Positions 17,101 to 58,451 of a DNA stretch of 64,000 bases are shown one piece after another. Positions within the stretch are counted from its first letter, which is position 1; each line of letters opens with the position of its first letter. A model generated the notes under the pieces. The model was given only the letters and a program-made list of their open reading frames with translations, did no database searches and was not told the DNA's origin. Where the stretch lies: the sequence record NC_070982.1. One strand, written 5' to 3'. Origin of the DNA: Escherichia phage vB_EcoP-101114UKE3. A program made the position numbers and the translations under genes.

Positions 17101-18640
17101 GGAAGTTGGTCAGATGAAGGATGTGTGGGATGGGTTTATTAATACCTATAACCGAGAAGTTAACATGTTCAACAAGGCTAACAAGAATTCTCAATACGAA
17201 GCAGCAGCTAAACACTTGCAAGCACGTCAAGAACGTCTTGAGACGCTCCGTAACAGAGCTAAAGCTCGCAGTGATGCTAAGGCAGCCATGGAGGCTGAGA
17301 AGCAGTCCTTGGAGGCTATAGCGGCTCAGAAATCAGAGATAGAGAAGATGTTCAAAGAATTGCCTGAAAGTGTCAGAGAGGCTCAGGAAGGGCGTACTTT
17401 GAAACAGCTTGCTGCTCACCATGATAAGAACTCTCCAGTACCACCAGAGCGTTTCCGTAGTATCATTGAACGTATTCACAACGCTGAGAGTGATTACCTC
17501 GATCGCAAACGTCGTTTGACCGAAGCAGAGGAAGATGCTCGTGAAGCTAAGTGGAATAGGATGTATGAACAGGCTGAGGAAATGAACCGTAAGTTTGATA
17601 TCGATGCTAGAGTGAAGAGAGATAAGGCTCTGAAGGAAGCTCAAGAACGAGAGAATGACTTAATGGCAGTTCAACGTCAGCGTGACGACATTCATAAGCG
17701 TTTGGTCAATACTCTGGAAGAGAAGGGAGTTTCTAGAGAAGATGCTGAAGCATATGCTGGGTCTTATATGGATAATCGGTATGCTTTGTTAGAGAAACCA
17801 ATGACTCCAGTGGAACATCAGAATGCTCGTGCTCGTATCGAATCTGACGTAGAGAAGTTTGTTAAGAAATACGAAACAGCTACTCCAATCGAAAGAGAGA
17901 TTGCTAAAGCAACTGGTGATGCAGATGGGAAACCTTCTGACTTAGATGCAGAAACATTAAAAGCTATCGAAGATGCTCGTAAAGTTGATTCCGATTTTAA
18001 GAAACTCTTAGATGAAGAGAAGGAAATGGAGAAGATTCGTTCAGCTCTACCTGAAGATGAAAGATCTCAGGCGAACTCTGATATTCTGGAAAGTATTAAG
18101 AAACAGGAAGATGATTTTGCTAGCAAAGCAGAGAAAGCTTTTATTGAAGGGAAGGACTTGCAGGAGTTAGCGAGTGTTGCAGAAGTTCTAGATAGGGTTC
18201 ATGGTGCAGACAAGGCTGGTAACAACCGTCGATTTGTACGTGCTCTACAGACTGCTGCCGAGAACAAGAAACGTTATGGGGATAATCCAGTGGCTTGGTT
18301 TAGTGCTGATGATTACTCTGCTATTGCGAAACTTGGTGCTGCTTCGGCAGGTGGTAACAAATCTCGAGCACTTGAGAAAATCTTTGGTTCTACAGCAGAA
18401 CAAGCTAAAGGGAAACTTTTAGGGCGGGATGATGTAGCTAAGATTAGACGTGTGATTGAAGCGAATCCCAATGTTAAGATTCCTTCTTACAAGACAACTA
18501 CTCGACAAGAGTACATGCAGTTCTTGGAGAAGTATAATGACGAGGGAGAGTTGAAAGTCAAACGTGGTTCTCTGTCTGACAAGTTGGAGAGAGGTAAGCG
18601 TCAAGCTAAACTCCGTGTTAGAGTTCGAGCTAAGGAGTAA
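14195..18640 (+). CDS. very large internal virion/DNA-ejection protein (1481 aa)
   Basis: A/E/K/R-rich with long predicted coiled coils and repeated QRRA..EA segments; last gene of late operon. Confidence 0.55.
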   Translation: MANLKSWEEASKAPAYLNASPEQQAQMREQYKAAGGTIPETQPQEQPQQEERGAIGEFAQGVSNALQSGGANIAASAAKGLGGLVEIGENLTGSETSYGKRIQENSKQLLEERLSKIEDGFGKTAGQYAGVAADIGLTVANPAVAAAVIAARETGRAYADQTPKEDEDKSVLDAALVGGANYAAQKILPGMTGTASTTLGRVGQSVASNAVAGAKGGAIVGAAEAQNKYGDDTTLANVLEGAIEEGALGAAYGGAIGGVHGLISRPSPQVFDRTPEHVKTDIAAEDEAIRKAANADELREAYAKAENANAASALNLLDENGFRITDAVAMDSPAVQRILNTDQSRAEKAATVQKDSSNVPGLNPLASPKKTQGKAFADNEYNQKQAVAMKDAMADYTKDNTKALTDVLDNLDRELVALRASGDFTGSAIDIKNRTQADRDFIDAYKTFYSEANRFKARDGEDLNNFIDKATQLQKLSENVSPEMKKAIGGLKKLKGMPEGFNPIQDAFTLNNTAKFMSNQDRGWTSLTDDGFREAPAPVLVKNPLGAAKYVLNRFTSDRARAQREKQQSANSEAIRSLARADLEVQRARTQAEEARAKMEEEPTTEDIKFRTQNDAPSEPVREEPSATTVTEEIPSSPAPTETPLTARDLVAQRRALQQAELRRQEAEAAQAQESATPEPEPQQEALTARELVAQRRAVAEAKKRQEAEEAERAKEAPEEAVEEPKEKPEPLPARAPKAPEKAPEPVKPSLGVERLASMSTAARQATKDRADRFARSLYSAAAKAKATAENFLSYKGDPKELMRRIRQEDQANNTQRHEEMARNQLASQQGIASAKSQHVRASFADWVKERGLPSDIATKALRAEEKGLGGNVTSLDSLKRRAERLYQKQRDDEFDRLYREALEENKAFDKRDAPKLVDQKKELQDEIGALLDAEPLRPAQKDAMRRIMEDFVESKFKSSEKAGRVEALEVGQMKDVWDGFINTYNREVNMFNKANKNSQYEAAAKHLQARQERLETLRNRAKARSDAKAAMEAEKQSLEAIAAQKSEIEKMFKELPESVREAQEGRTLKQLAAHHDKNSPVPPERFRSIIERIHNAESDYLDRKRRLTEAEEDAREAKWNRMYEQAEEMNRKFDIDARVKRDKALKEAQERENDLMAVQRQRDDIHKRLVNTLEEKGVSREDAEAYAGSYMDNRYALLEKPMTPVEHQNARARIESDVEKFVKKYETATPIEREIAKATGDADGKPSDLDAETLKAIEDARKVDSDFKKLLDEEKEMEKIRSALPEDERSQANSDILESIKKQEDDFASKAEKAFIEGKDLQELASVAEVLDRVHGADKAGNNRRFVRALQTAAENKKRYGDNPVAWFSADDYSAIAKLGAASAGGNKSRALEKIFGSTAEQAKGKLLGRDDVAKIRRVIEANPNVKIPSYKTTTRQEYMQFLEKYNDEGELKVKRGSLSDKLERGKRQAKLRVRVRAKE

Positions 18641-18648
18641 ACAAGAAA

Positions 18649-18690
18649 AGCCCCCAACCTGTAAAAAGGAAGGGGGCTTCTTTATTTCTA
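18649..18690. terminator. bidirectional terminator at convergence of plus and minus transcription
   Basis: gccccc...gggggc hairpin flanked by T-run on plus strand and gcttttcttg on minus strand. Confidence 0.5.
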
Positions 18691-18757
18691 GATGTTAGAA
18701 TCCATCAAATTCATCATACATCCCAATTTTCTTCTTCAAAGTCAATCATAAAACCTC

Positions 18758-19057
18758 CTAGATTAAATCGTAATACTTAATAATATCAGAGAGCTTAAAC
18801 TCTCTAATGTCATTCTTGTCATTATCCCAAGCAGTCATTATCCAACAAGGTTTGCCCCCATTATGATAAGGGGAAGAAGCAACTGAGGTTCGTATAGGAA
18901 TAACGGAGCGGTCTGCAATCTCGCCTCTCCAATTACGATAGCTAAAGCGAAGAATTTGTTTCGTAGATACTTGATCATTTGTGCTTTCCTTGTTCATTGA
19001 TTCAAAGACTTCTTTTTCTTCAGGAGTCTCTAGATTTTTTAAATTCACGTCTTGCAT
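18758..19057 (-). CDS. hypothetical protein
   Basis: ATG 19057 (MQDVNL) with AGAGGA SD; track start 19180 would overlap HNH gene by 160 nt. Confidence 0.4.
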   Translation of the reverse strand: MQDVNLKNLETPEEKEVFESMNKESTNDQVSTKQILRFSYRNWRGEIADRSVIPIRTSVASSPYHNGGKPCWIMTAWDNDKNDIREFKLSDIIKYYDLI

Positions 19058-19424
19058 CGTTTTCCTCTTTAGTTTTAATCTTATGGCATGGTTCTTTACA
19101 TAAGACCTGAAAGCCATCTTTCTCAACCAAAGCTCTCTCAATAATCTCATCCCAAGTAGCTTCATGGTCCACTGGAACAATAGGCTCGATGTGGTCGACA
19201 GCCACCTCTTTCAGAGGAGAGTCATTACCGCACATGGCACACTTGTAGTGCATTGCCAGCTTGCCAGTCTTAGGATTGATTTTACGTTCTGTCTGAGCTT
19301 CTTTGAGAGCATCAAACATAGGCTTCCACTTTCTAGTCAGAGAACGAATCCCTGACTTAATGAAGGAGTTGTAACGTGCTTCAGTCCACTGATTTGAACA
19401 TCTTGTCTTCTCAGCCTTCGCCAT
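19020..19424 (-). CDS. HNH endonuclease
   Basis: CAMCG...VDHIEPI...CKEPCH zinc/HNH motifs. Confidence 0.6.
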   Translation of the reverse strand: MAKAEKTRCSNQWTEARYNSFIKSGIRSLTRKWKPMFDALKEAQTERKINPKTGKLAMHYKCAMCGNDSPLKEVAVDHIEPIVPVDHEATWDEIIERALVEKDGFQVLCKEPCHKIKTKEENDARREFKKSRDS

Positions 19425-22470: not shown

Positions 22471-23211
22471 TTAGAAAGGGCTGTCATCTTCTTCAAAGGT
22501 AGACTGCGGCTCTTCGTTAATAGTAGGGATACTTGGAGTAGCATCTTTCTGTTCAGTATCAGAAGCTTTAGTAACTTCACGACCAGCCAGAGGGATGTTC
22601 TTAGCATCATTAGCTTGGGTCAGAAGATTACGTTGGAATGGGAAGATTGCTTGATAAGCAGCCAAGTTAGCATCAGTCTCAGCATACGGTTCGAAGAAGA
22701 TCAACTCACTACGAGGGGCACCTACAGCATCACGATATTTGGTAGGGATTGGAGTGATACTCTTAATGGAGTTTTTCTTCTCACCAGCTTTGTTTACATA
22801 GGAATTAACCAGAATGTTAACAGGCTGACCTAGCAGCATATCTTTAAACCAACCCAAATCACCTTTCAGTGCTTGAACACTTGGGTCGATCATTTTAATC
22901 AGATTCAGAATACCAGAGTTCTTAGCTCGTGGGTTTACGTCGAAAGTTTTAAACTGGCAAGCAGGACGAGGGTCCAGAGGTTTGCCTTCATTATCAGTCC
23001 CTGTTGCATCTACGCCAATCAGCTCAAAAGCTAAGTCCATACGGAAAGCTGGGTTCTTAGGGGTAACTGCTTTGGTCTTAGGGTCAATCCAAGGGTCACG
23101 ATTGTGAACACCTAAACCTACAACACGAACAATACGTGCTTCGTACTCACCATCAGGGATTACATCGTAGTTGGATTTACGGGATACAGACAGTTCAGGG
23201 ATCATAGACAT
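22471..23211 (-). CDS. ssDNA-binding protein candidate
   Basis: acidic C-terminal tail ending EEDDSPF, as in SSB and T7 gp2.5. Confidence 0.5.
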   Translation of the reverse strand: MSMIPELSVSRKSNYDVIPDGEYEARIVRVVGLGVHNRDPWIDPKTKAVTPKNPAFRMDLAFELIGVDATGTDNEGKPLDPRPACQFKTFDVNPRAKNSGILNLIKMIDPSVQALKGDLGWFKDMLLGQPVNILVNSYVNKAGEKKNSIKSITPIPTKYRDAVGAPRSELIFFEPYAETDANLAAYQAIFPFQRNLLTQANDAKNIPLAGREVTKASDTEQKDATPSIPTINEEPQSTFEEDDSPF

Positions 23212-23268
23212 ATTAATATTTCCTTATATAAATTTAAGATTGTTGCTCTCTTTGAGCGGTTTGTATAC

Positions 23269-23279
23269 TATATACATTA
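23269..23279 (-). promoter_or_regulatory. promoter-like motif TAATGTATATA (minus)
   Basis: about 60 nt upstream of SSB start. Confidence 0.45.
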
Positions 23280-23341
23280 CACTTATACAGATAAGGTTCT
23301 ATTATACTATAACCTTTTTGGTAGTAGATAATGACAAGTAG

Positions 23342-23352
23342 TAATGTATATA
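23342..23352 (+). promoter_or_regulatory. promoter-like motif TAATGTATATA (plus, divergent)
   Basis: exact motif on plus strand in 410-bp ORF-free region; no downstream plus-strand gene. Confidence 0.35.
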
Positions 23353-23625
23353 TGGTATAGCTAGTAAAGCTATTGCAGGCTTGTATATTGGGCAATCATT
23401 GTAACCCTTGCAAGTACCGAAGGGCAGGAGACACCTGCGAGATAAAATAGAGAATTAAGGAAATCCTTGATTTAGGTTGTAGGGACTCCTAGGGACTTTG
23501 ATTCTCTATTTAAAAGAATATTAATTACTTACTACCTAAATAATTAACTAACTTACTTAAACCAAACTCAAGAATAATAGATAAAAAGATTATTCCTAAG
23601 AAAGCTAAAAAGTAAAGGATATAAG

Positions 23626-24246
23626 TTACCATTCAAGTAAACCTTTAAAGTTAGTTTGTTCTACTATCCTCTGATAAGGTAAGTTAGATTCTGCTTGTTT
23701 GCTTAACACCTCTTGTACTTTATCAGTAATTGAATAATCTTTTTGTAATAAAGAAGCTACCCACTCTTTCCTACTTTCCAGTTCTTTTCTAATCTCTTGC
23801 AGAGACACAGCTCTGTAATCAATTTGTTCCATAGAAGTACAGAAGTATCTCCAATCTCTGATAGTAGAATTATGAGTATGAGCATAGATATTATACTTTC
23901 CTCTCATTTCATCAGAGTGAATAGGAATATGAGTTACCCAAAACTCTTTGTACTTATAATCACCACTGATGTGTCTAAAGACTTTCATCATATCAGGGAG
24001 AAGTTCTAATCTGTCATGGTTTCCTAAGACAAGATGTTTCTCTCCTTTTACTTCAGCGATAATATCAAGTGCATATTTCTCAAACACCCAATCACCTGTA
24101 AAGAAAGTTTTATCACGTTTAGTAACATGGTCAAACGCTGCTAAGATAGCTTTGTCGTGTTCTTCAATACTACTAAACTTCTTCCTAAAGTTACAGATGT
24201 TACGATGGCCTAGGTGACCATCACCTGCAAAATAAACTTCAGCCAT
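23626..24246 (-). CDS. calcineurin-like metallophosphoesterase
   Basis: GDGHLGH ... GNHD motifs. Confidence 0.65.
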   Translation of the reverse strand: MAEVYFAGDGHLGHRNICNFRKKFSSIEEHDKAILAAFDHVTKRDKTFFTGDWVFEKYALDIIAEVKGEKHLVLGNHDRLELLPDMMKVFRHISGDYKYKEFWVTHIPIHSDEMRGKYNIYAHTHNSTIRDWRYFCTSMEQIDYRAVSLQEIRKELESRKEWVASLLQKDYSITDKVQEVLSKQAESNLPYQRIVEQTNFKGLLEW

Positions 24247-50243: not shown

Positions 50244-50446
50244 ACAACCTCTTCTTTGAGCTTAAAAAAGGACTCTCCTAAGAGAGCCAAGCTTTAAGGC
50301 CAATTAAATAGATATCACCCAATATCTGTGGATAACCTGCTCTTAAAATATTCTATCCGACGGATGTTCGAGGATTATTCCTCTCCCTAGCATCGGCCCC
50401 ATACGGGAAAGATTAAATTAAGTTTAGGTTAGTTGAGCCAGAATAG

Positions 50447-50489
50447 CTCACATAGCCCTCTGATACTCACAAGGGCTATAGATGTTACT
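50447..50489 (-). repeat. conserved hairpin element, copy A
   Basis: CACATAGCCCTCTGATACTCACAAGGGCTATAG directly after stop codon; 8-bp stem, 12-nt loop; near-identical copy at 56084-56130. Confidence 0.5.
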
Positions 50490-50733
50490 CTGTGGCTCCG
50501 TCGAATCGGAGGATTGCTGCTGGAACAGGGTATGCTTCCAGATCTTCATCCAGTCGGTATAGATGCCCTGTACTTAAATTTACAGCTGTTACTGGCTTAG
50601 AGTGGCCTCCAGCCTGTATGGAAGGAACTCTGATAAAGAACTCTTCTGGATATTCAACAGAGTGGAACACACTTCCTGAATAAAGATCTTTTATTTTAGA
50701 AGTTTGTTTAGGAGTTTTATCAGCAATTTTCAT
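50485..50733 (-). CDS. small protein, five-member paralog family
   Basis: L-x-x-G-[DS]-x-F ... V-x-L-S-x-G pattern shared with 51854, 52124, 54939, 56130 ORFs. Confidence 0.45.
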   Translation of the reverse strand: MKIADKTPKQTSKIKDLYSGSVFHSVEYPEEFFIRVPSIQAGGHSKPVTAVNLSTGHLYRLDEDLEAYPVPAAILRFDGATE

Positions 50734-50966
50734 TACAGACCTTTCTTAGCACGATCTTTGGCAGTTTTGCCAGTGCGGATACGATGGGAAACATTAACCA
50801 GCTCGCCACCTTCGACGATGGTTACGCTTTTGTTTTTCGCAATATCAAACACAGTTTTCTCTGTGCCGCCCAGACGAATCTGTTTAGGCTCACTGTGGGT
50901 CTGAGTTGATTTAGACTGGAACTGGAACGGCTGACGGATGGCATCAATTGCGCTAACTTTAGACAT
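50733..50966 (-). CDS. small hypothetical protein
   Basis: 77-aa ORF. Confidence 0.4.
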   Translation of the reverse strand: MSKVSAIDAIRQPFQFQSKSTQTHSEPKQIRLGGTEKTVFDIAKNKSVTIVEGGELVNVSHRIRTGKTAKDRAKKGL

Positions 50967-50994
50967 GTTTTTATTACCTTACATTAAAGAGAGA

Positions 50995-51408
50995 TTAAAC
51001 AACGAATTGGAACGCTTCGTATCCAAACTTGTATAAGAAATCGTGTTTGAACTTTACTACACGACCACGATCGCGGAAAGCTTTCAGGCGACTGCTGAAC
51101 CCAACCATTGGCTCAGGGTCAATAGGGCTACGAATCTTCATAGCTACAGAGTGCAGCTTGAAGCGTTTACCAGTGCTACAGGCCATCATCACATACTCCA
51201 TACGAGTAGTCCAGATGTTGAGCACCATGCTTGTTTTCTCCGCTGACCAACCAGTCTTGCGGGCGATTTCTTTATGGACATTAAGCTCCAAAGGAAGAGG
51301 GAATTGCTTGTTGAATGAAGCCGGATATAGCTTGACCAGAAGGTCAATGTTTTCTTTATACGTTAAGTAAGCCAATTTCTTGCTTACGTTAGGGAATTTC
51401 CCAGACAT
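50995..51408 (-). CDS. ProQ/FinO-domain-like RNA-binding protein
   Basis: KENIDLLVKLYPASF..PLPLELNVHKEIARKTGWSAEKTSMVLNIWTTRMEYV...GKRFKLHS aligns by pattern to E. coli ProQ N-terminal domain. Confidence 0.45.
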   Translation of the reverse strand: MSGKFPNVSKKLAYLTYKENIDLLVKLYPASFNKQFPLPLELNVHKEIARKTGWSAEKTSMVLNIWTTRMEYVMMACSTGKRFKLHSVAMKIRSPIDPEPMVGFSSRLKAFRDRGRVVKFKHDFLYKFGYEAFQFVV

Positions 51409-51606
51409 TTTTGAAGCTCCAAAACAGCGCCGAAAAGAGAGGCGTCATAGTAGCTAAAAGGAGGAGAGAAGAGGGCTTATTTACTTGCCTTTTTCTGTCC
51501 GTTAATGTACCAGATAACTGAACCGTCAGGCTGTCGTTGACCGAAGCCTTTCAAGTTAACCATTTCTTCTTCAGAGTAGGCACGTTTTCTCACTGATTTT
51601 CTCCTG

Positions 51607-51864
51607 TCAGTAGAAGGTGTGTGTAGAGTCGTCGTTCATAGATAACCAAACGAAGAAGACAATCACACAGAAAGCAATAATACCGAGAGTTGCAAGGATT
51701 ATAGTGTTAGCTAATGTGATATCTAACACGCTTTGCAGATATATAAAGAACTGTACGACACCACATACCATCAGCACAACCCCAACGACAATGAGGAGCC
51801 AATATGTGCAGAGAAGGACTGCATCTAATAGTGATACATACTTTGGATGATCTTTATGTCTCAC
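51607..51864 (-). CDS. small membrane protein
   Basis: two or three TM segments. Confidence 0.4.
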   Translation of the reverse strand: MRHKDHPKYVSLLDAVLLCTYWLLIVVGVVLMVCGVVQFFIYLQSVLDITLANTIILATLGIIAFCVIVFFVWLSMNDDSTHTFY

Positions 51865-52120
51865 TGATCTTTTCCACTAAATCCAGAGTTGCTGATTCAA
51901 ATACAACACCAACTACCATATTAGGTGCCATATTACGAACGTATCCGCTCTGCATAGACACGGCCCGAGAGTATTCAGAACCGTTAGAACTTTTGTTTAC
52001 CTTCATGTAAAGGGTTTGCTCTTTATCTTCTTTCAGAGTAAAGAAAGAGCCGGGAAGAAGCCTCTGAACAGTCAGAGGGATATCTGCAACATGAGTCTTA
52101 TTGATAGTAAGAACTGTCAT
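51854..52120 (-). CDS. small protein, five-member paralog family
   Basis: LLPGSFFTLKEDKEQTLYMKV. Confidence 0.45.
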   Translation of the reverse strand: MTVLTINKTHVADIPLTVQRLLPGSFFTLKEDKEQTLYMKVNKSSNGSEYSRAVSMQSGYVRNMAPNMVVGVVFESATLDLVEKISET

Positions 52121-52123
52121 TGC

Positions 52124-52378
52124 TTATTCCTTAATAGTTGCTTCAGCTTTAATAGGAATAACAGCAACATCTTTACGAGGTGCTGTCGCTCGACCTGTGT
52201 TAAGGCAGGCTACAAGTCTATGCTCGTCCGCACCCTTGATGCAGAGTCGAGTTGAGAACTCAGTAGACAGCAAGATGTACAAATCATCATCTTCACTGTT
52301 AGGGTACATGAAGCAATCCCCAAGTCGTAAAGCACTGAGAGGTATTGCACTCTTACCTGCTGGTTTATTAACTTTCAT
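52124..52378 (-). CDS. small protein, five-member paralog family
   Basis: LRLGDCFMYPNSEDDDLYILLS. Confidence 0.45.
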   Translation of the reverse strand: MKVNKPAGKSAIPLSALRLGDCFMYPNSEDDDLYILLSTEFSTRLCIKGADEHRLVACLNTGRATAPRKDVAVIPIKAEATIKE

Positions 52379-52654
52379 TTTACCACCTTTAGTTATGGAC
52401 CAATTTATGAGAGAACTCTCGGAAGAATGCTTTCATAAATAGGGGGAGGGGACGAATCCTCCCATATCCTATTAATTAATATTGCATGTAAGATCTAACA
52501 ATTCGATGCTGTAGTGGATAGCGTAAAACGCTTACCGGCATTAAACCCAGCCCATGAGGGGCTTATGTGAATAAAATGCTCAACATTGAGCGGTTAGTTG
52601 ATAGGAGATCTGAAGTCCTATCTCAAAGGACTCTCGTAAGAATCCTTCACGATA

Positions 52655-52909
52655 TCACTTAGTAAGAAAGATTATCAACTTATCCGCTACCCAGCCTATT
52701 AACATAAGGACAGGTAAGAAGAAGATAAAGATCAGCATAAAAGGCCAGAAGAATATCACCGTCCAAATAGAAAGTATATCAGGCTGACCACTCCATGAGC
52801 AGTGGAAGAAGTTGTAGAGTGTATTGGTTTTGAAGCACCATTTAACTACAATGGCTGCTAACCACCAACCAATAACATAAATCAGGAGGACATACGCTGC
52901 TGTAACCAT
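52655..52909 (-). CDS. small membrane protein
   Basis: multiple TM segments. Confidence 0.4.
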   Translation of the reverse strand: MVTAAYVLLIYVIGWWLAAIVVKWCFKTNTLYNFFHCSWSGQPDILSIWTVIFFWPFMLIFIFFLPVLMLIGWVADKLIIFLTK

Positions 52910-53136
52910 TCACCGTTCCATTGATAGTTGCGAGTTACCACGTTTCCGTGGATAAGGAAGTGCTGGCGGCGAAGGATATCTTTAACGTTGTAGTAGGCAG
53001 CGTTACCGAGATGACCTTCTTTAATAAGCCAACGAAGATTACGGATATCAACCAACAGCATTTTTACTTGCTGTTGGCATGAAGTTTGAGCTGCTGTTTC
53101 AAGTAGAGCTTTCGTATCAGAATAATGACCGGACAT
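52882..53136 (-). CDS. hypothetical protein
   Basis: 84-aa ORF. Confidence 0.35.
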   Translation of the reverse strand: MSGHYSDTKALLETAAQTSCQQQVKMLLVDIRNLRWLIKEGHLGNAAYYNVKDILRRQHFLIHGNVVTRNYQWNGEWLQQRMSS

Positions 53137-53137
53137 A

Positions 53138-53464
53138 TCACCACTCCTTACCCTTTGTTGTTACAGAGCCACTACACTGTACACCACGGGAGATAAAGTC
53201 ATAACGCGACCAATCACCTTGTGTCTCCATATCACGCCCTACATAAGCCTTCTCATCAACAGCACCGCCGTTGGAACAAGAAGCACCAGCATAACGCATA
53301 TCAATTTCACCACTAGGAATCTTCTCCCCGCTGTGCCAACGGGAAACACAGACACCTTCTACCGATAATGCACACCATCCATCAGGACGATGCTGTACGC
53401 AGCCTGTAAGAGCTACACAGGCGATAAAGATACAGGTTAAGGTAATTACACCACCCCAGCTCAT
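53138..53464 (-). CDS. secreted protein/lipoprotein candidate
   Basis: signal peptide with LTGC lipobox-like motif. Confidence 0.5.
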   Translation of the reverse strand: MSWGGVITLTCIFIACVALTGCVQHRPDGWCALSVEGVCVSRWHSGEKIPSGEIDMRYAGASCSNGGAVDEKAYVGRDMETQGDWSRYDFISRGVQCSGSVTTKGKEW

Positions 53465-53601
53465 AATCCCTCCTGAAGCGCCTTACGGCGGCTATCTCGC
53501 CAAGCCATCCATAGGTAGGTTTTAAGTTCTTCTCTTTCTTCTTCGCTGAACAAAGGAGAAGTAAAGATATCATCGAACCACTCATTAAACTCAGGGGTCA
53601 T
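53461..53601 (-). CDS. small acidic protein (46 aa), replaces track ORF 53382..53585
   Basis: AGGAGG SD 4 nt before ATG 53601; TGA overlaps ATG of downstream gene. Confidence 0.35.
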   Translation of the reverse strand: MTPEFNEWFDDIFTSPLFSEEEREELKTYLWMAWRDSRRKALQEGL

Positions 53602-53740
53602 AAACCCTCCTATTTGATTTGGTGGACTATCTGGAATCGAACCAGAAGCTCACTAAGAAAGCAATTCCCACTGTTATAAAAGCACTTGCCTCAACAGGGA
53701 TACACTAACTTTGGTGCCGCACCCATACTAGCCCTAAATG

Positions 53741-53816
53741 TGGTGCGCCCTACAGGACTCGAACCTGTAACCAATAGCTTAGAAGGCTACTGCTCTATCC
53801 GTTGAGCTAAGAGCGC
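53741..53816 (-). tRNA. tRNA-Arg(UCU): tRNA-Arg (anticodon UCU), CCA encoded
   Basis: hand-folded cloverleaf: 7-bp acceptor, D arm GCTC/GAGC, anticodon loop CTTCTAA, T arm ACAGG-TTCGAGT-CCTGT, discriminator A plus CCA. Confidence 0.85.
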
Positions 53817-53824
53817 GGAATTGT

Positions 53825-54034
53825 TTAACTGAAGATACGCAAGGCCACATCATGACCAATATGACCGGGAACTTTATGCTGCTCTATTTTCAAGCAGCGC
53901 TTACAGATACGAGATACACGAGACTCTTTTCTCTCTACTGGAGTGTCTTTAGCGTGAGTGATGTGTAGGTTTTCAGTGATCACCCACTCGTGTTTACATC
54001 CAGAATCTTCGGGCTTTTTCTTACGAAAGAACAT
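53825..54034 (-). CDS. small zinc-ribbon protein (triplet member)
   Basis: start MFFRKKK; CKHEW ... CKRC. Confidence 0.4.
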   Translation of the reverse strand: MFFRKKKPEDSGCKHEWVITENLHITHAKDTPVERKESRVSRICKRCLKIEQHKVPGHIGHDVALRIFS

Positions 54035-54042
54035 AACACCTC

Positions 54043-54207
54043 TTAGATCAGATCTGTTTTCTTGTGCAGACCACACACTTTACAGCGAGAGTAGATACGC
54101 AACCCTTGTCGCTCTCTGTCAGTAAGTTTATTTGTGATCGTCAGTTCATAAGTATGAAGATCTTCCCACTCATGGAAATGAAATAGACGTTTGAACCATT
54201 TGATCAT
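54043..54207 (-). CDS. small zinc-ribbon protein (triplet member), not in ORF track
   Basis: 54 aa MIKWFKRLFHFHEW...CKVCG; near-duplicate N-terminus of 54217..54402. Confidence 0.4.
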   Translation of the reverse strand: MIKWFKRLFHFHEWEDLHTYELTITNKLTDRERQGLRIYSRCKVCGLHKKTDLI

Positions 54208-54216
54208 AATGATTCC

Positions 54217-54402
54217 TTAGATTACATCACGATGACTAATATCACCACACACCTTACACTGAATAATGTAACGTGTGCCCTTGTCATTGTTCCCATCTGA
54301 ATCCGTATAGACCAGAGGACGGGTGTTAATAATCTTCCAATCATGACAATGGAAGACACGCTTTAGCCACTTAATCATATTAAGCACACGCCGGTAATTC
54401 AA
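54217..54402 (-). CDS. small zinc-ribbon protein (triplet member)
   Basis: MIKWLKRVFHCHDW...CKVCG. Confidence 0.4.
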   Translation of the reverse strand: MNYRRVLNMIKWLKRVFHCHDWKIINTRPLVYTDSDGNNDKGTRYIIQCKVCGDISHRDVI

Positions 54403-54637
54403 TTAACTGAGGAGTACGACAAGGGCCATCCTCATACACACCTACCAGTGTTGGCATGTAAGGCCCAGCGCACTGGTATTCATCGAACAGTTCATTGTAA
54501 GTAGGCTTCCACTTCCAAGCCCACACATAACCCATTCGATCAATGGCAATGTAACGAGTGTTCAGAGGAACCTGCATCATCACATCACCAACTGCTATTA
54601 CTTTCGTAATAACTGCTGCTCGGAAGTTTGTCTTCAT
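54380..54637 (-). CDS. hypothetical protein
   Basis: 85-aa ORF. Confidence 0.35.
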   Translation of the reverse strand: MKTNFRAAVITKVIAVGDVMMQVPLNTRYIAIDRMGYVWAWKWKPTYNELFDEYQCAGPYMPTLVGVYEDGPCRTPQLIELPACA

Positions 54638-54942
54638 GACTTTGCAGCCTCCATCATTTTATTCATTTTAGCCACACCTTTACGGATAAGAGGCATAAAT
54701 TCATCAGCCAGTTCAGTGGATAAAAGTTTAAGCCCGCCTGATTTAATACCGTTCACCGCCTTCTCAACTTCATCCGACAGCAATGTCATTGTTAACCACG
54801 GGGATTTTATTACCACAGTAAAGCCCGGTTCATACCGCGAGTGACTGTAGGTGAACTCTAAATGAGTAACACCGGGCATCTTAGACATTTGAGCACGGAT
54901 ATCTACATTAGGGTTGCAGCGAGTTGAAGATGAAATTGTCAT
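54634..54942 (-). CDS. hypothetical protein
   Basis: 102-aa ORF. Confidence 0.35.
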   Translation of the reverse strand: MTISSSTRCNPNVDIRAQMSKMPGVTHLEFTYSHSRYEPGFTVVIKSPWLTMTLLSDEVEKAVNGIKSGGLKLLSTELADEFMPLIRKGVAKMNKMMEAAKS

Positions 54943-55190
54943 GGCGCTTTAATCTCAATCTGAACGTTGACGACGAATACAGTATGGTTTGCACTGTACA
55001 CTGAAGTGCCTATGATTGGCTTATCATCACTGAGGATTTCAACAGCGTGCTCAAGGTTAATCTTCAGATGAAGACGCCCTGATTCCATGAAGAAATCACC
55101 AGCACGTATCTCACCGAACTTAGCTGGCACACCGATAGAGGGTATCAGTATGTCAGTGCGACCTTTACGGTCAAATAAACGATTGAACAT
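54939..55190 (-). CDS. small protein, five-member paralog family
   Basis: IRAGDFFMESGRLHLKIN. Confidence 0.45.
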   Translation of the reverse strand: MFNRLFDRKGRTDILIPSIGVPAKFGEIRAGDFFMESGRLHLKINLEHAVEILSDDKPIIGTSVYSANHTVFVVNVQIEIKAP

Positions 55191-55199
55191 ATCACCCCC

Positions 55200-55409
55200 T
55201 TATGTAATATCAACCTCAAACCAACAGGTAAGAGCTTTTTCATTGTTGCGTTTTGGCTCAAAGGATTTAACAACCGATAACACTCGGCGCTGTTCTCCAT
55301 CAAACCAGATAGTTTCATCTTTTTCAGGGAGTAGGTTGTGTGCAGCACAAACAATCTCACCTAGTACAACCTGTCTGCCATCTTGCTTACGAACTAAACG
55401 AATGTTCAT
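55200..55409 (-). CDS. small hypothetical protein
   Basis: start MNIRLV after terminator hairpin. Confidence 0.35.
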   Translation of the reverse strand: MNIRLVRKQDGRQVVLGEIVCAAHNLLPEKDETIWFDGEQRRVLSVVKSFEPKRNNEKALTCWFEVDIT

Positions 55410-55452
55410 AACAACCTCTCTTGTTAGTTTAAGTAAGAGTTGTCCCTTAATT

Positions 55453-55483
55453 AAAACAACAAAGGCCACCCCTAAGGGCAGCC
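55453..55483 (-). terminator. intrinsic terminator
   Basis: minus-strand ggcugccc-uuag-ggguggcc with two G-U pairs (C-A on plus strand), then U-rich run. Confidence 0.5.
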
Positions 55484-55489
55484 TCTTAT

Positions 55490-55693
55490 TTAAGCGCAAG
55501 CACTACGCAGTTTGTTATTCAAGAAGCGATCTTCTGCATTATACAGGAATGCATAGAACAACTCTTTTGCTACATCCCGATCGCAATTGAGACATTTAGA
55601 GATCTGTAACAACAAACCATCACGACTATTAGGATGGTCAATTATCGCAAGACGAATAATCTCACGAATACCAATGTCATGCTCAGCCGCCAT
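55490..55693 (-). CDS. small hypothetical protein
   Basis: 67-aa ORF. Confidence 0.35.
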   Translation of the reverse strand: MAAEHDIGIREIIRLAIIDHPNSRDGLLLQISKCLNCDRDVAKELFYAFLYNAEDRFLNNKLRSACA

Positions 55694-56083
55694 AGAACCA
55701 ATCACCCTGACGTTTACGAATGTTAGTTGTCAGACGAAGCATGGCAGACTCAATCTTCAGAGCACCATTTGCTACTGCATCCATACGTTCAGGACGGTTC
55801 ATACGTTTGGTTGTCTTTTTCATAATGTTCTCTCTTTATTGATGGAGGCAGGATTGCCAGTTAATATAAAGGGAAGCCCTACACGTTAAGACTTCCGCTT
55901 GTACAAACTGTCGAGAACTCTCTACCCCTAGATTGTTCTCTATCCCAAACCGATACATACCCCTACATATCGGAAAGCTGTTCGAAAATTAACAGGTTTT
56001 AGTCTATCACCGGATGTTTGAGACAAGTCTCGCCCTAGCGGTGAGCCATATGGCGTTGAGATTATAGTTAATTGAGGAACACC

Positions 56084-56130
56084 CTCACATAGCCCTCTGA
56101 TAAACACAAGGGCTATAAGTCGATGTTACT
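56084..56130 (-). repeat. conserved hairpin element, copy B
   Basis: CACATAGCCCTCTGATAAACACAAGGGCTATAAG directly after stop of 56130..56360. Confidence 0.5.
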
Positions 56131-56360
56131 TAACCATTAATATGAGTTACTTGAACATCAGGTACAGGGATAACTTCATGGTCTTCCTGTAATTGGAACA
56201 GTGTCCCCTGACTAAGACCAACCACACGATGCATATCGTTAAGTCTAGTGTCTGTCTTTAGGTAGACATTTTCAGAGTTAGTTGGTAAACGGAACACATC
56301 GCCCGGACGTAACTCACTGAGCTTTTTAGTAACAACTACAGAGAAGAGATTAATTTTCAT
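56130..56360 (-). CDS. small protein, five-member paralog family
   Basis: LRPGDVFRLPTNSENVYLKT ... VVGLSQGTLFQLQED. Confidence 0.45.
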   Translation of the reverse strand: MKINLFSVVVTKKLSELRPGDVFRLPTNSENVYLKTDTRLNDMHRVVGLSQGTLFQLQEDHEVIPVPDVQVTHING

Positions 56361-56533
56361 TTGATTAACACCAAATCAGTACGACGTTCGAAGGAAGGGG
56401 AGGATTCACCATTCCACTGAACAAGATAACAGAGAACACCATCAATCGTTGTTCTCCGACGAATAACACCTGTAACAGTTCCACCAACAAGACGAACGGT
56501 GTCGCCAACGGTAAATTTAACCTTTGAGCGCAT
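56357..56533 (-). CDS. small hypothetical protein
   Basis: start MRSKVKF with AGGAG SD. Confidence 0.35.
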   Translation of the reverse strand: MRSKVKFTVGDTVRLVGGTVTGVIRRRTTIDGVLCYLVQWNGESSPSFERRTDLVLIK

Positions 56534-56822
56534 CTCCTGTTTCCTCATTCTGGCGTTTAATTTCTTCAGTGAGTTGCTTATTAAGATCTTGAATACGCTT
56601 AATCTCCCAACCCAAAGAAGCCAAACGATCGTTACGTGCTTCGATTTGTTCCTGCATTTTAAGTAATTTGGAACGAACATCAGCATTAAAAACTTCTTCT
56701 TGCTTAAGAAGGAACTCGTAACGACGCTTCCAGCTTGCTGATTTATTTCTTAAAATAATAAACCCTAGAGTAGAAACCGTTACAGTGAGTACGAAAAGGA
56801 ACTTATAAACCTCTAAAGACAT
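56517..56822 (-). CDS. membrane-anchored coiled-coil protein
   Basis: N-terminal TM then helical E/K-rich region. Confidence 0.4.
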   Translation of the reverse strand: MSLEVYKFLFVLTVTVSTLGFIILRNKSASWKRRYEFLLKQEEVFNADVRSKLLKMQEQIEARNDRLASLGWEIKRIQDLNKQLTEEIKRQNEETGDALKG

Positions 56823-58241: not shown

Positions 58242-58451
58242 TTAATCAATTAAACTAAACGATTTCCAACTACGTGTAATTGCTACCTTTTCGCCATCAA
58301 AGAGAACACTTACAGAGATCAGTTTACCGCGACAACTGGATACCGTGGTAATACGTCCGGTTAATGCCTTACCTTTATTCAGGTAGTGATAGCGGACACG
58401 ACGTCCTAACAAACGAGTAGCTTTCTTCTCTAACGTGCTTAAGCTGGTCAT
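58242..58451 (-). CDS. small hypothetical protein
   Basis: 69-aa ORF. Confidence 0.35.
   Translation of the reverse strand: MTSLSTLEKKATRLLGRRVRYHYLNKGKALTGRITTVSSCRGKLISVSVLFDGEKVAITRSWKSFSLID

Follow-up and report, generated by a model that had tools for sequence, protein, structure and literature searches.

Five small genes of Escherichia phage vB_EcoP-101114UKE3, here called P1 to P5 in the order of their coordinates (Table 1), are with high probability deeply diverged members of a single widespread and so far undescribed protein family, resembling gp21 of phage N4 and gp95–98 of phage phiEco32, whose members are predicted to fold as SH3-like beta-barrels. The genes lie in a stretch of 64,000 nucleotides of this phage (NC_070982.1), which is referred to at its full length as the window. 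The further proposal that they form an arsenal of binders directed against the host is tentative and stands below even odds. For the complete explanation, which takes family, fold and binder arsenal together, we estimate a probability of roughly 0.45.

The five open reading frames (ORFs) were pointed out in an initial annotation of the window as a paralogous family. They are found at exactly the positions given there, on the minus strand, and each corresponds to an annotated coding sequence (CDS) of Escherichia phage vB_EcoP-101114BS3 (MZ234015.1), where all five are labeled 'hypothetical protein'. The 7-kb stretch around them is 100% identical to that record, which belongs to a phiEco32-like phage of the genus Kuravirus (Gordonclarkvirinae). 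Around 130 other phiEco32-like phages share 85–97% identity over the same stretch.

Homology of the five proteins

The family had been proposed on the basis of two short motifs. The first, L-x-x-G-[DS]-x-F, occurs exactly in P1, P2, P3 and P5 and as I-x-x-G-D-x-F in P4. The second, V-x-[LM]-x-[ST]-G, applies as worded to P1 and P2 only. P3 has A-x-L-x-T-G at this position, P5 has V-x-L-x-Q-G and P4 has V-x-I-x-S-D (V-x-I-x-S-G in the P4 orthologs). Both motifs at the right spacing are confined to P1–P5 among all 476 ORFs of at least 35 amino acids in the window, the set also used for the phmmer and foreign-profile searches below, while a relaxed first motif is present in seven. A multiple alignment with MAFFT yields pairwise identities of 12–32% and three invariant columns, so that statistical tests were needed. 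With P5 as a query, phmmer returns the other four proteins as its top four matches (P1, E = 6.5e-5; P3, 4e-3; P2, 0.11; P4, 0.47). A hidden Markov model (HMM) built from P1, P3 and P5 retrieves P2 at E = 0.0019 and P4 at E = 2.5. P5 is thus the hub of the group: it is linked pairwise to P1 and P3, P2 joins by profile, and P4 joins by profile–profile comparison only. Independently made PHROG profiles (phrog_6570, 7431, 7832, 8365, 9955, 12612 and 16423) also cross-link P1, P2, P3 and P5. P2, for instance, matches phrog_6570 at E = 6.2e-4 and phrog_7431 at E = 2.7e-3. The sole PHROG match of P4 is phrog_22099.

As a single sequence, P4 matches the family HMM at E = 0.006–0.018. A profile of seven P4 orthologs (from Kuravirus-like phages and from Crifsvirus A24, ECO319P1 and PKM.Lu.22.1 of the Grimontviridae) was compared by hhalign with a family profile that contained no Kuravirus sequence and had P4 in no seed. 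The two align over 63 columns in the register of the motifs, with a probability of 96.2–96.7%, E-values of 2e-9 to 3e-10 and a score of 47–50. Sixty column-shuffled controls scored 15.8 at most (mean 9.8, standard deviation 2.1), a reversed alignment scored 10.7, and ten neighboring small ORFs all scored below 16. The P4 orthologs of Crifsvirus also match the family HMM directly (E = 2.4e-5 and 1.5e-4). A 'foreign' profile of 133 sequences from other phages finds P5 (E = 5.7e-23), P1 (5.4e-20), P3 (2.3e-17) and, with the P2 orthologs left out of the profile, P2 (3.9e-13) among the 476 ORFs, although these E-values overstate the independence of the test because the profile that recruited its sequences had P5, P1, P3 and P2 as seeds. 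No sixth member was found in the window by the pairwise, HMM and foreign-profile searches.

From these comparisons we conclude that the claimed paralogous family is genuine, with a similarity that is real but old and with P4 standing far apart from the rest. That the short ORFs resemble one another by chance, a reading to which the low identities, the mere three invariant MAFFT columns and the lack of pairwise significance for P2 and P4 would lend themselves, is hardly credible. It is ruled out by profile and profile–profile statistics that were controlled with shuffled and neighboring sequences, by the independent PHROG cross-matches and by the joint presence of both motifs in register, which is exclusive to the five.

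Predicted fold and extent of the family

The family is predicted to consist of five-stranded SH3-like beta-barrels of about 75 residues. An AlphaFold2 model of P5, computed from an alignment of eight sequences, has a mean predicted local distance difference test (pLDDT) score of 80.8 and a predicted template modeling score of 0.66, with strands at residues 22–24, 32–40, 43–48, 53–58 and 62–65 and disordered termini. When this model is compared by Foldseek with BFVD, a collection of UniProt viral proteins, 26 matches at E ≤ 1e-3 are obtained. All are uncharacterized phage proteins of 72–89 amino acids, among them N4 gp21 and proteins of ECBP2, NJ01, 172-1, EP335 and SU7. No protein of phages T4, T5 or T7 occurs among the best 50 BFVD matches listed.

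Conservation was quantified as the information content per column over 147 members, in P5 numbering. High values are found at M1, K2, I3, [FL]14, L17, G20, D21, V22, F23, Y33, [MI]34, K35 and T36 and, in the C-terminal half, at V47, L49, G52, D60, V63, P65 and V66. These positions form the ordered motifs [FL]-x-x-L-x-x-G-D-x-F, Y-[MI]-K-T, V-x-L-x-x-G and V-x-P-V. The set is present in the window members, with P4 degenerate in the third and fourth motifs and P2 lacking the proline of the last. Information drops to nearly zero at residues 24–31, 37–45, 53–59 and after 67, where the length varies as well. The conserved positions are mostly hydrophobic residues or glycine, which would fit the core and the turns of the modeled barrel.

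A profile search of 1.84 billion representatives at 50% identity retrieved at least 184 clusters at E ≤ 1e-3. With few exceptions, their members are stand-alone proteins of 68–93 amino acids that match over the full length from residue 1, and around ten clusters comprise tandem two-domain proteins of 131–161 amino acids. One metagenomic protein of 153 amino acids (P0149) carries a single family domain followed by a C-terminal segment with weak Pfam matches to helix-turn-helix domains (E of about 2e-3), a fusion that hints at a possible use of the barrel in DNA-binding proteins, as a module for sensing or for binding a partner. Within isolated phages, tblastn and the BFVD search place members in Kuravirus-like phages, in N4 and N4-like phages and in phages of Serratia, Erwinia, Proteus, Morganella and Vibrio. 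With members in N4, Serratia, Erwinia, Vibrio, Proteus and other phages, the family is not lineage-specific. A scan of positions 1–50,000 of T4 with the family HMMs detected no member (best E = 0.039, on modB).

The two model phages deserve mention, as the family gives their genes a place. N4 gp21 (74 amino acids) matches the family HMM at E = 1.9e-19, and nine phiEco32 proteins (gp95, 96, 97, 98, 104, 109, 113, 114 and 115) match it at E = 1e-6 to 1e-14. They agree with the window proteins in sequence family, length, motifs, the predicted fold (by BFVD) and location in pre-replicative genome regions. On the other hand, their identity to the window proteins is just 20–40%, and they are uncharacterized themselves. 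In the phiEco32 stretch compared, the genes are arranged as two tandem blocks, gp95–98 (18220–19199) and gp113–115 (23031–23733), with gp104 and gp109 in addition. The papers searched on phiEco32, SU10 and YF01 mention neither paralogs or duplications nor these tandem blocks.

No known family can be assigned to the proteins, in agreement with the initial annotation. Scans of the five against Pfam, NCBIfam and PADLOC (defense proteins), and of 96 members against Pfam, gave no meaningful match. A profile search of the PDB sequences returned nothing below E = 0.2, and thus no sequence match to solved members of the KOW, EF-P/eIF5A or uL2 barrels. Members are named hypothetical in every source, and their clusters carry no precomputed Pfam domain. 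A word-indexed protein search retrieved only close orthologs with P5 and P4, and only additional unnamed proteins with an alignment of 96 sequences. Likewise, the literature on N4 gp21, on anti-defense in Kuravirus and on Kuravirus paralogs yielded nothing about the family. It is new as a described sequence family, although the fold is known and the kind of gene, a small beta-barrel ORFan of a phage early region, is familiar. At least eight separate PHROGs without a function (6570, 7431, 7832, 8365, 9955, 12612, 16423 and 22099) are joined in it.

The initial annotation also spoke of an expansion, and as worded this does not hold. Each copy is nearer to proteins of unrelated phages known from metagenomes than to the paralogs encoded beside it (P5 reaches 45.8 bits with the metagenomic protein P0025 versus 32.3 bits with P1). 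Because of these closer, non-orthologous relatives, the five are better regarded as old lineages of a pan-phage family than as the outcome of a recent local expansion.

Possible roles early in infection

Host-takeover and anti-defense proteins are encoded mainly in the early regions of phage genomes, where most genes are unclassified ORFans. The cluster of the five genes was said to lie in such a region, and synteny indeed pairs it with the early class of phiEco32, which has been defined by experiment. The promoters of that class are located at the right genome end and are used by the sigma-70 holoenzyme of the host (PMC8948821). The same class comprises CDS 69–125 of SU10 (PMC4281155) and gp82–122 of YF01 (PMC9965538). 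Elsewhere, members of the family are embedded in long runs of small ORFs that share one direction and have no Pfam domain, frequently with a second member adjacent. On one metagenomic contig of 122 kb, a member (P0017) is located directly upstream of a gene for a Gad2-like nucleotidyltransferase (PF26128), with several ORFs of 79–82 amino acids nearby. A second contig shows this adjacency as well.

The repertoire differs between related phages. Family HMMs run over the syntenic early regions (7–9 kb) count five copies in the window phage, SU7 and Bas87, six in IME267 and Bas88, seven in ECBP2, eight in TH34 and in PKM.Lu.22.1 (Grimontviridae) and nine in phiEco32. The region is common to 134 phage records, and each ortholog set is found in only about 20–39 of them. 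Gain and loss of whole genes is clean: in some relatives P5 is followed immediately by an additional member, and in some another one immediately precedes it. Such differences among nearly identical phages (Bas86–88 of the BASEL collection and the window phage) can be set against host range. Alleles are exchanged as well. P1 falls into two allele classes in close relatives, with either more than 92% or about 60% amino acid identity, and the alleles differ by a synonymous divergence (dS) above 1.1 as opposed to 0.2–0.3 in the flanking genes; P2 behaves likewise in TH34. Values so far above those of the flanks indicate that the alleles were replaced by recombination.

We propose that each copy would be a soluble, stoichiometric binder of a different macromolecule of the host or of a defense system, acting early in infection. 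The barrel would serve as a constant scaffold, the choice of target would lie in its variable loops and surface, and the changing repertoire of the relatives (five to nine copies, allele swaps) would result from selection by different host strains. The case for a role in host takeover or anti-defense is circumstantial, consisting of the early position, the turnover of copies, the replacement of alleles and the one Gad2-like neighbor. Such a mode of action has a precedent in Nip of phage Phi3T, a counter-defense protein with two SH3-like domains and an HU-like dimerization domain that inhibits SpbK (PMC11984713). There, SH3-like domains bind a host defense protein, and the family likewise has tandem two-domain forms. 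Nip differs in its length of 279 amino acids, its extra dimerization domain and its occurrence in Bacillus phages, and no homology is claimed. The most far-reaching version, a diversified 'binder scaffold' superfamily that goes unrecognized by databases and supplies each genome with five to nine copies neutralizing different defense or housekeeping proteins of the host, is rather unlikely. N4 gp21 and a dozen ORFans of phiEco32 and Kuravirus would then belong to this one large superfamily for counter-defense or host takeover. If the copies do bind distinct host proteins, they would represent small inhibitors of a new class, built on a mini-binder scaffold of natural origin. If they do not, the cluster is a case of ordinary ORFan paralogy.

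Several points weigh against the proposed explanation. At the level of the family, the independent support for P1, P2, P3 and P5 is weaker than the foreign profile implies, with E-values of 1e-5 to 1e-3. The fold model derives from an eight-sequence alignment of one paralog, and an AlphaFold2 model of P4 with five close orthologs reaches a pLDDT of just 40. At the level of function, the binding role is a conjecture about proteins that every source calls hypothetical, and the Gad2 adjacency is a single case. Early expression of the five genes is suggested by synteny with other phages. A scan for sigma-70 promoters between 49.5 and 60.5 kb showed no enrichment (14 sites versus 23 expected) and so no evidence of internal promoters; three weak sigma-70-like sites lie upstream of the phi32_124 homolog, and terminator-like hairpins are enriched in the scanned region. 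Finally, an arms race is not directly evident, because the gene-wide ratios of nonsynonymous to synonymous substitution (dN/dS) are well below 1 and only that of P5 is somewhat elevated.

According to the main rival explanation, the family would consist of small barrels (LSm-, KOW- or uL2-SH3-like) that bind nucleic acid and, by acting on RNA of the phage or the host, affect mRNA stability or translation. It finds a precedent in the early proteins GoF, MotB.1 and Frd.2 of T4, which are LSm-like and of which one mutant stabilizes an mRNA (PMC12152347). As is predicted for the family described here, these are sequence-dissimilar early proteins of one phage with a shared small beta-barrel fold. 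They are longer, however, and have the LSm-like motif in their N-terminal part only, and goF and motB.1 are not matched by the family HMMs in the T4 region scanned (frd.2 lies outside of it). The top matches among the PDB sequences, though weak, are IF5A and EF-P (E = 0.8–0.9), and a sub-threshold ProQ/FinO-like gene is present in the transcription unit of P1. The structural matches, for their part, would be obtained with any SH3-like barrel. The idea is weakened by the acidic-to-neutral isoelectric points (5.9–7.7 for the five; median of 5.5 for the family, with 62% of the members below 6) and by the lack of a conserved basic patch. There is no conserved aromatic patch either, and the conserved polar positions are limited to K2, D21, K35, T36 and D60. 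We consider RNA binding unlikely as the common role, although it is the strongest competitor of the host-directed binders.

Less likely again is the absence of any host-directed role, with the genes being neutral or selfish recombining cassettes or serving needs internal to the phage, such as immunity or antitoxin-like partners of nucleases. The clean gain and loss of single genes between nearly identical genomes would fit this, as would the homing endonucleases that are found nearby in some contexts. Selection argues against it. According to Nei–Gojobori estimates against six relatives, dN/dS amounts to 0.10–0.24 for P1, 0.12–0.25 for P2, 0.02–0.11 for P3, 0–0.16 for P4 and 0.19–0.35 for P5. 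All five are real genes under purifying selection, with P5 somewhat relaxed or faster, and gene-wide dN/dS gives no indication of positive selection for any of them in these comparisons. P3 is the most conserved among close relatives (94–100% amino acid identity across the clade). Moreover, the family persists in very different groups of phages, and no toxin or nuclease is a consistent neighbor among the contexts examined.

An improbable third possibility is that the proteins modulate RNA polymerase (RNAP) through Tudor- or KOW-like domains, such as those of CarD, Mfd, UvrD-CTD and NusG, and so take part in reprogramming host transcription in a phage that already encodes a sigma factor of its own. 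Phages of this group do take over RNAP, by means of gp36 and gp79 (PMC12276001). Yet RNAP from phiEco32-infected cells carries only gp36 and gp79, despite the nine family genes of this phage (PMC12276001), which makes RNAP binding by the family unlikely. Members also occur in N4, which uses its own RNAPs. The phiEco32 protein gp79 itself, a middle gene product of 82 amino acids that regulates RNAP (PMC12276001, PMC8948821), is similar to the family in size, phage group and host-takeover role. It consists of four alpha-helices, in contrast to the all-beta prediction for P5, and is unrelated in fold and sequence. The identification of one of the paralogs as the gp79 regulator was therefore rejected.

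Very improbable, lastly, are cell-wall-binding SH3b domains that aid lysis, as represented by DUF7244, the stand-alone SH3 protein encoded next to the lysis cassette of T1-like phages (PMC13164509). DUF7244 and bacterial SH3 domains are small five-stranded SH3-like barrels, as is predicted for the family, and DUF7244 is likewise a stand-alone small phage protein. It is single-copy and beside the lysis cassette, whereas the window family has several copies per genome in an early cluster that is distant from the genes for lysis (PMC9965538). What favors a relation is a lysozyme protein of 1397 amino acids (P0068) with eleven SH3_3 domains, which is weakly matched by the N-terminal half of the family profile. 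An hhalign comparison of the family with the eleven SH3_3 repeats gives a probability of 60% (P = 8.6e-5) over 43 columns, in the N-terminal half only, where the 'l-k-x-G-x-x-v ... W-y-k-V' part of SH3_3 weakly resembles the L-x-x-G-D-x-F ... Y-x-K part of the family. With a profile–profile probability of only 60%, a distant tie to bacterial SH3 domains is possible but unproven. The SH3-clan entries of Pfam, including SH3_3 (PF08239) and DUF7244, match none of the five at E ≤ 10 and none of the 96 members at E ≤ 0.1. The five sequences show neither a signal peptide nor a membrane anchor, and this lack of export signals, together with the early position, makes a cell-wall role unlikely.

Gene organization of the locus

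All genes of the 7-kb region are on the minus strand (Table 1). P2 and P3 are in tandem with a gap of 3 nucleotides, and P4 has a longer N-terminal extension in addition to its degenerate second motif. P1 is the final gene ahead of the terminator-like hairpin, a pattern match that probably marks the end of the transcription unit that holds it. In SU7, the corresponding position carries an annotated terminator.

Table 1. Features of the early gene cluster in the window (positions of the whole stretch)
Feature	Position	Strand	Remarks
P1	50485..50733	-	82 aa; CDS 101114BS3_073; best PHROG 6570
P2	51854..52120	-	88 aa; CDS 101114BS3_078; best PHROG 12612
P3	52124..52378	-	84 aa; CDS 101114BS3_079; best PHROG 7832
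P4	54939..55190	-	83 aa; CDS 101114BS3_090; PHROG 22099
P5	56130..56360	-	76 aa; CDS 101114BS3_096; PHROG 16423; nearest to the family consensus
Terminator-like hairpin followed by a T-run	50271..50288	-	Consensus scan; about 200 nt downstream of P1
ProQ/FinO-like gene	50995..51408	-	137 aa
Membrane-like protein gene	52655..52909	-	84 aa, hydrophobic
tRNA-Arg (anticodon TCT)	53741..53816	-	ARAGORN
Second paralog set, first gene	53825..54034	-	
Second paralog set, second gene	54043..54207	-	
Second paralog set, third gene	54217..54378	-	
DUF7247 gene	54634..54942	-	E = 1.8e-14; 4-nt overlap with the end of P4
Slot directly downstream of P5	55836..56129	-	Only two short doubtful ORFs in the window phage
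Annotated ORF inside this slot	55940..56107	-	55 aa
Small early gene	56357..56686	-	KOW/SH3-like-barrel-reminiscent pattern
Small early gene	58242..58451	-	KOW/SH3-like-barrel-reminiscent pattern

The slot directly downstream of P5 holds one additional family member of 225 nucleotides in IME267, Bas88, ECBP2 and TH34, according to the HMM census. The ORF annotated inside this slot has a dN/dS of 1.3–1.5 against Bas88, TH34 and ECBP2 at a low dS and is for this reason probably not a genuine coding gene. Directly downstream of P4, the DUF7247 gene is absent in the close relatives SU7, Bas88 and ECBP2 and can thus be considered a further presence/absence cassette. The ProQ/FinO-like gene apparently shares a transcription unit with P1, which follows two genes farther downstream. 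The product of the former matches the RNA-chaperone profile PF04352 at E = 1.1e-5 with 25.8 bits, below the gathering threshold of 27.

A second tandem set of small paralogs comprises three genes. The motif MIKW-x-KR-x-FH-x-H-x-W occurs in two of the three products and a C-terminal, zinc-ribbon-like C-K-x-C in all three, and SU7 has a 41%-identical version in place of the third copy. The tRNA-Arg gene is unannotated in MZ234015.1 and is annotated at the syntenic position in SU7, IME267, Bas87/88, ECBP2 and phiEco32. The patterns of the last two small early proteins of Table 1 (e.g., VGDTVRLVGG...G.I) are reminiscent of KOW or SH3-like barrels, and neither the family HMM nor Pfam matches these products. 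The hydrophobic, membrane-like protein shows an unusually high dN/dS of 0.4–1.7 among close relatives.

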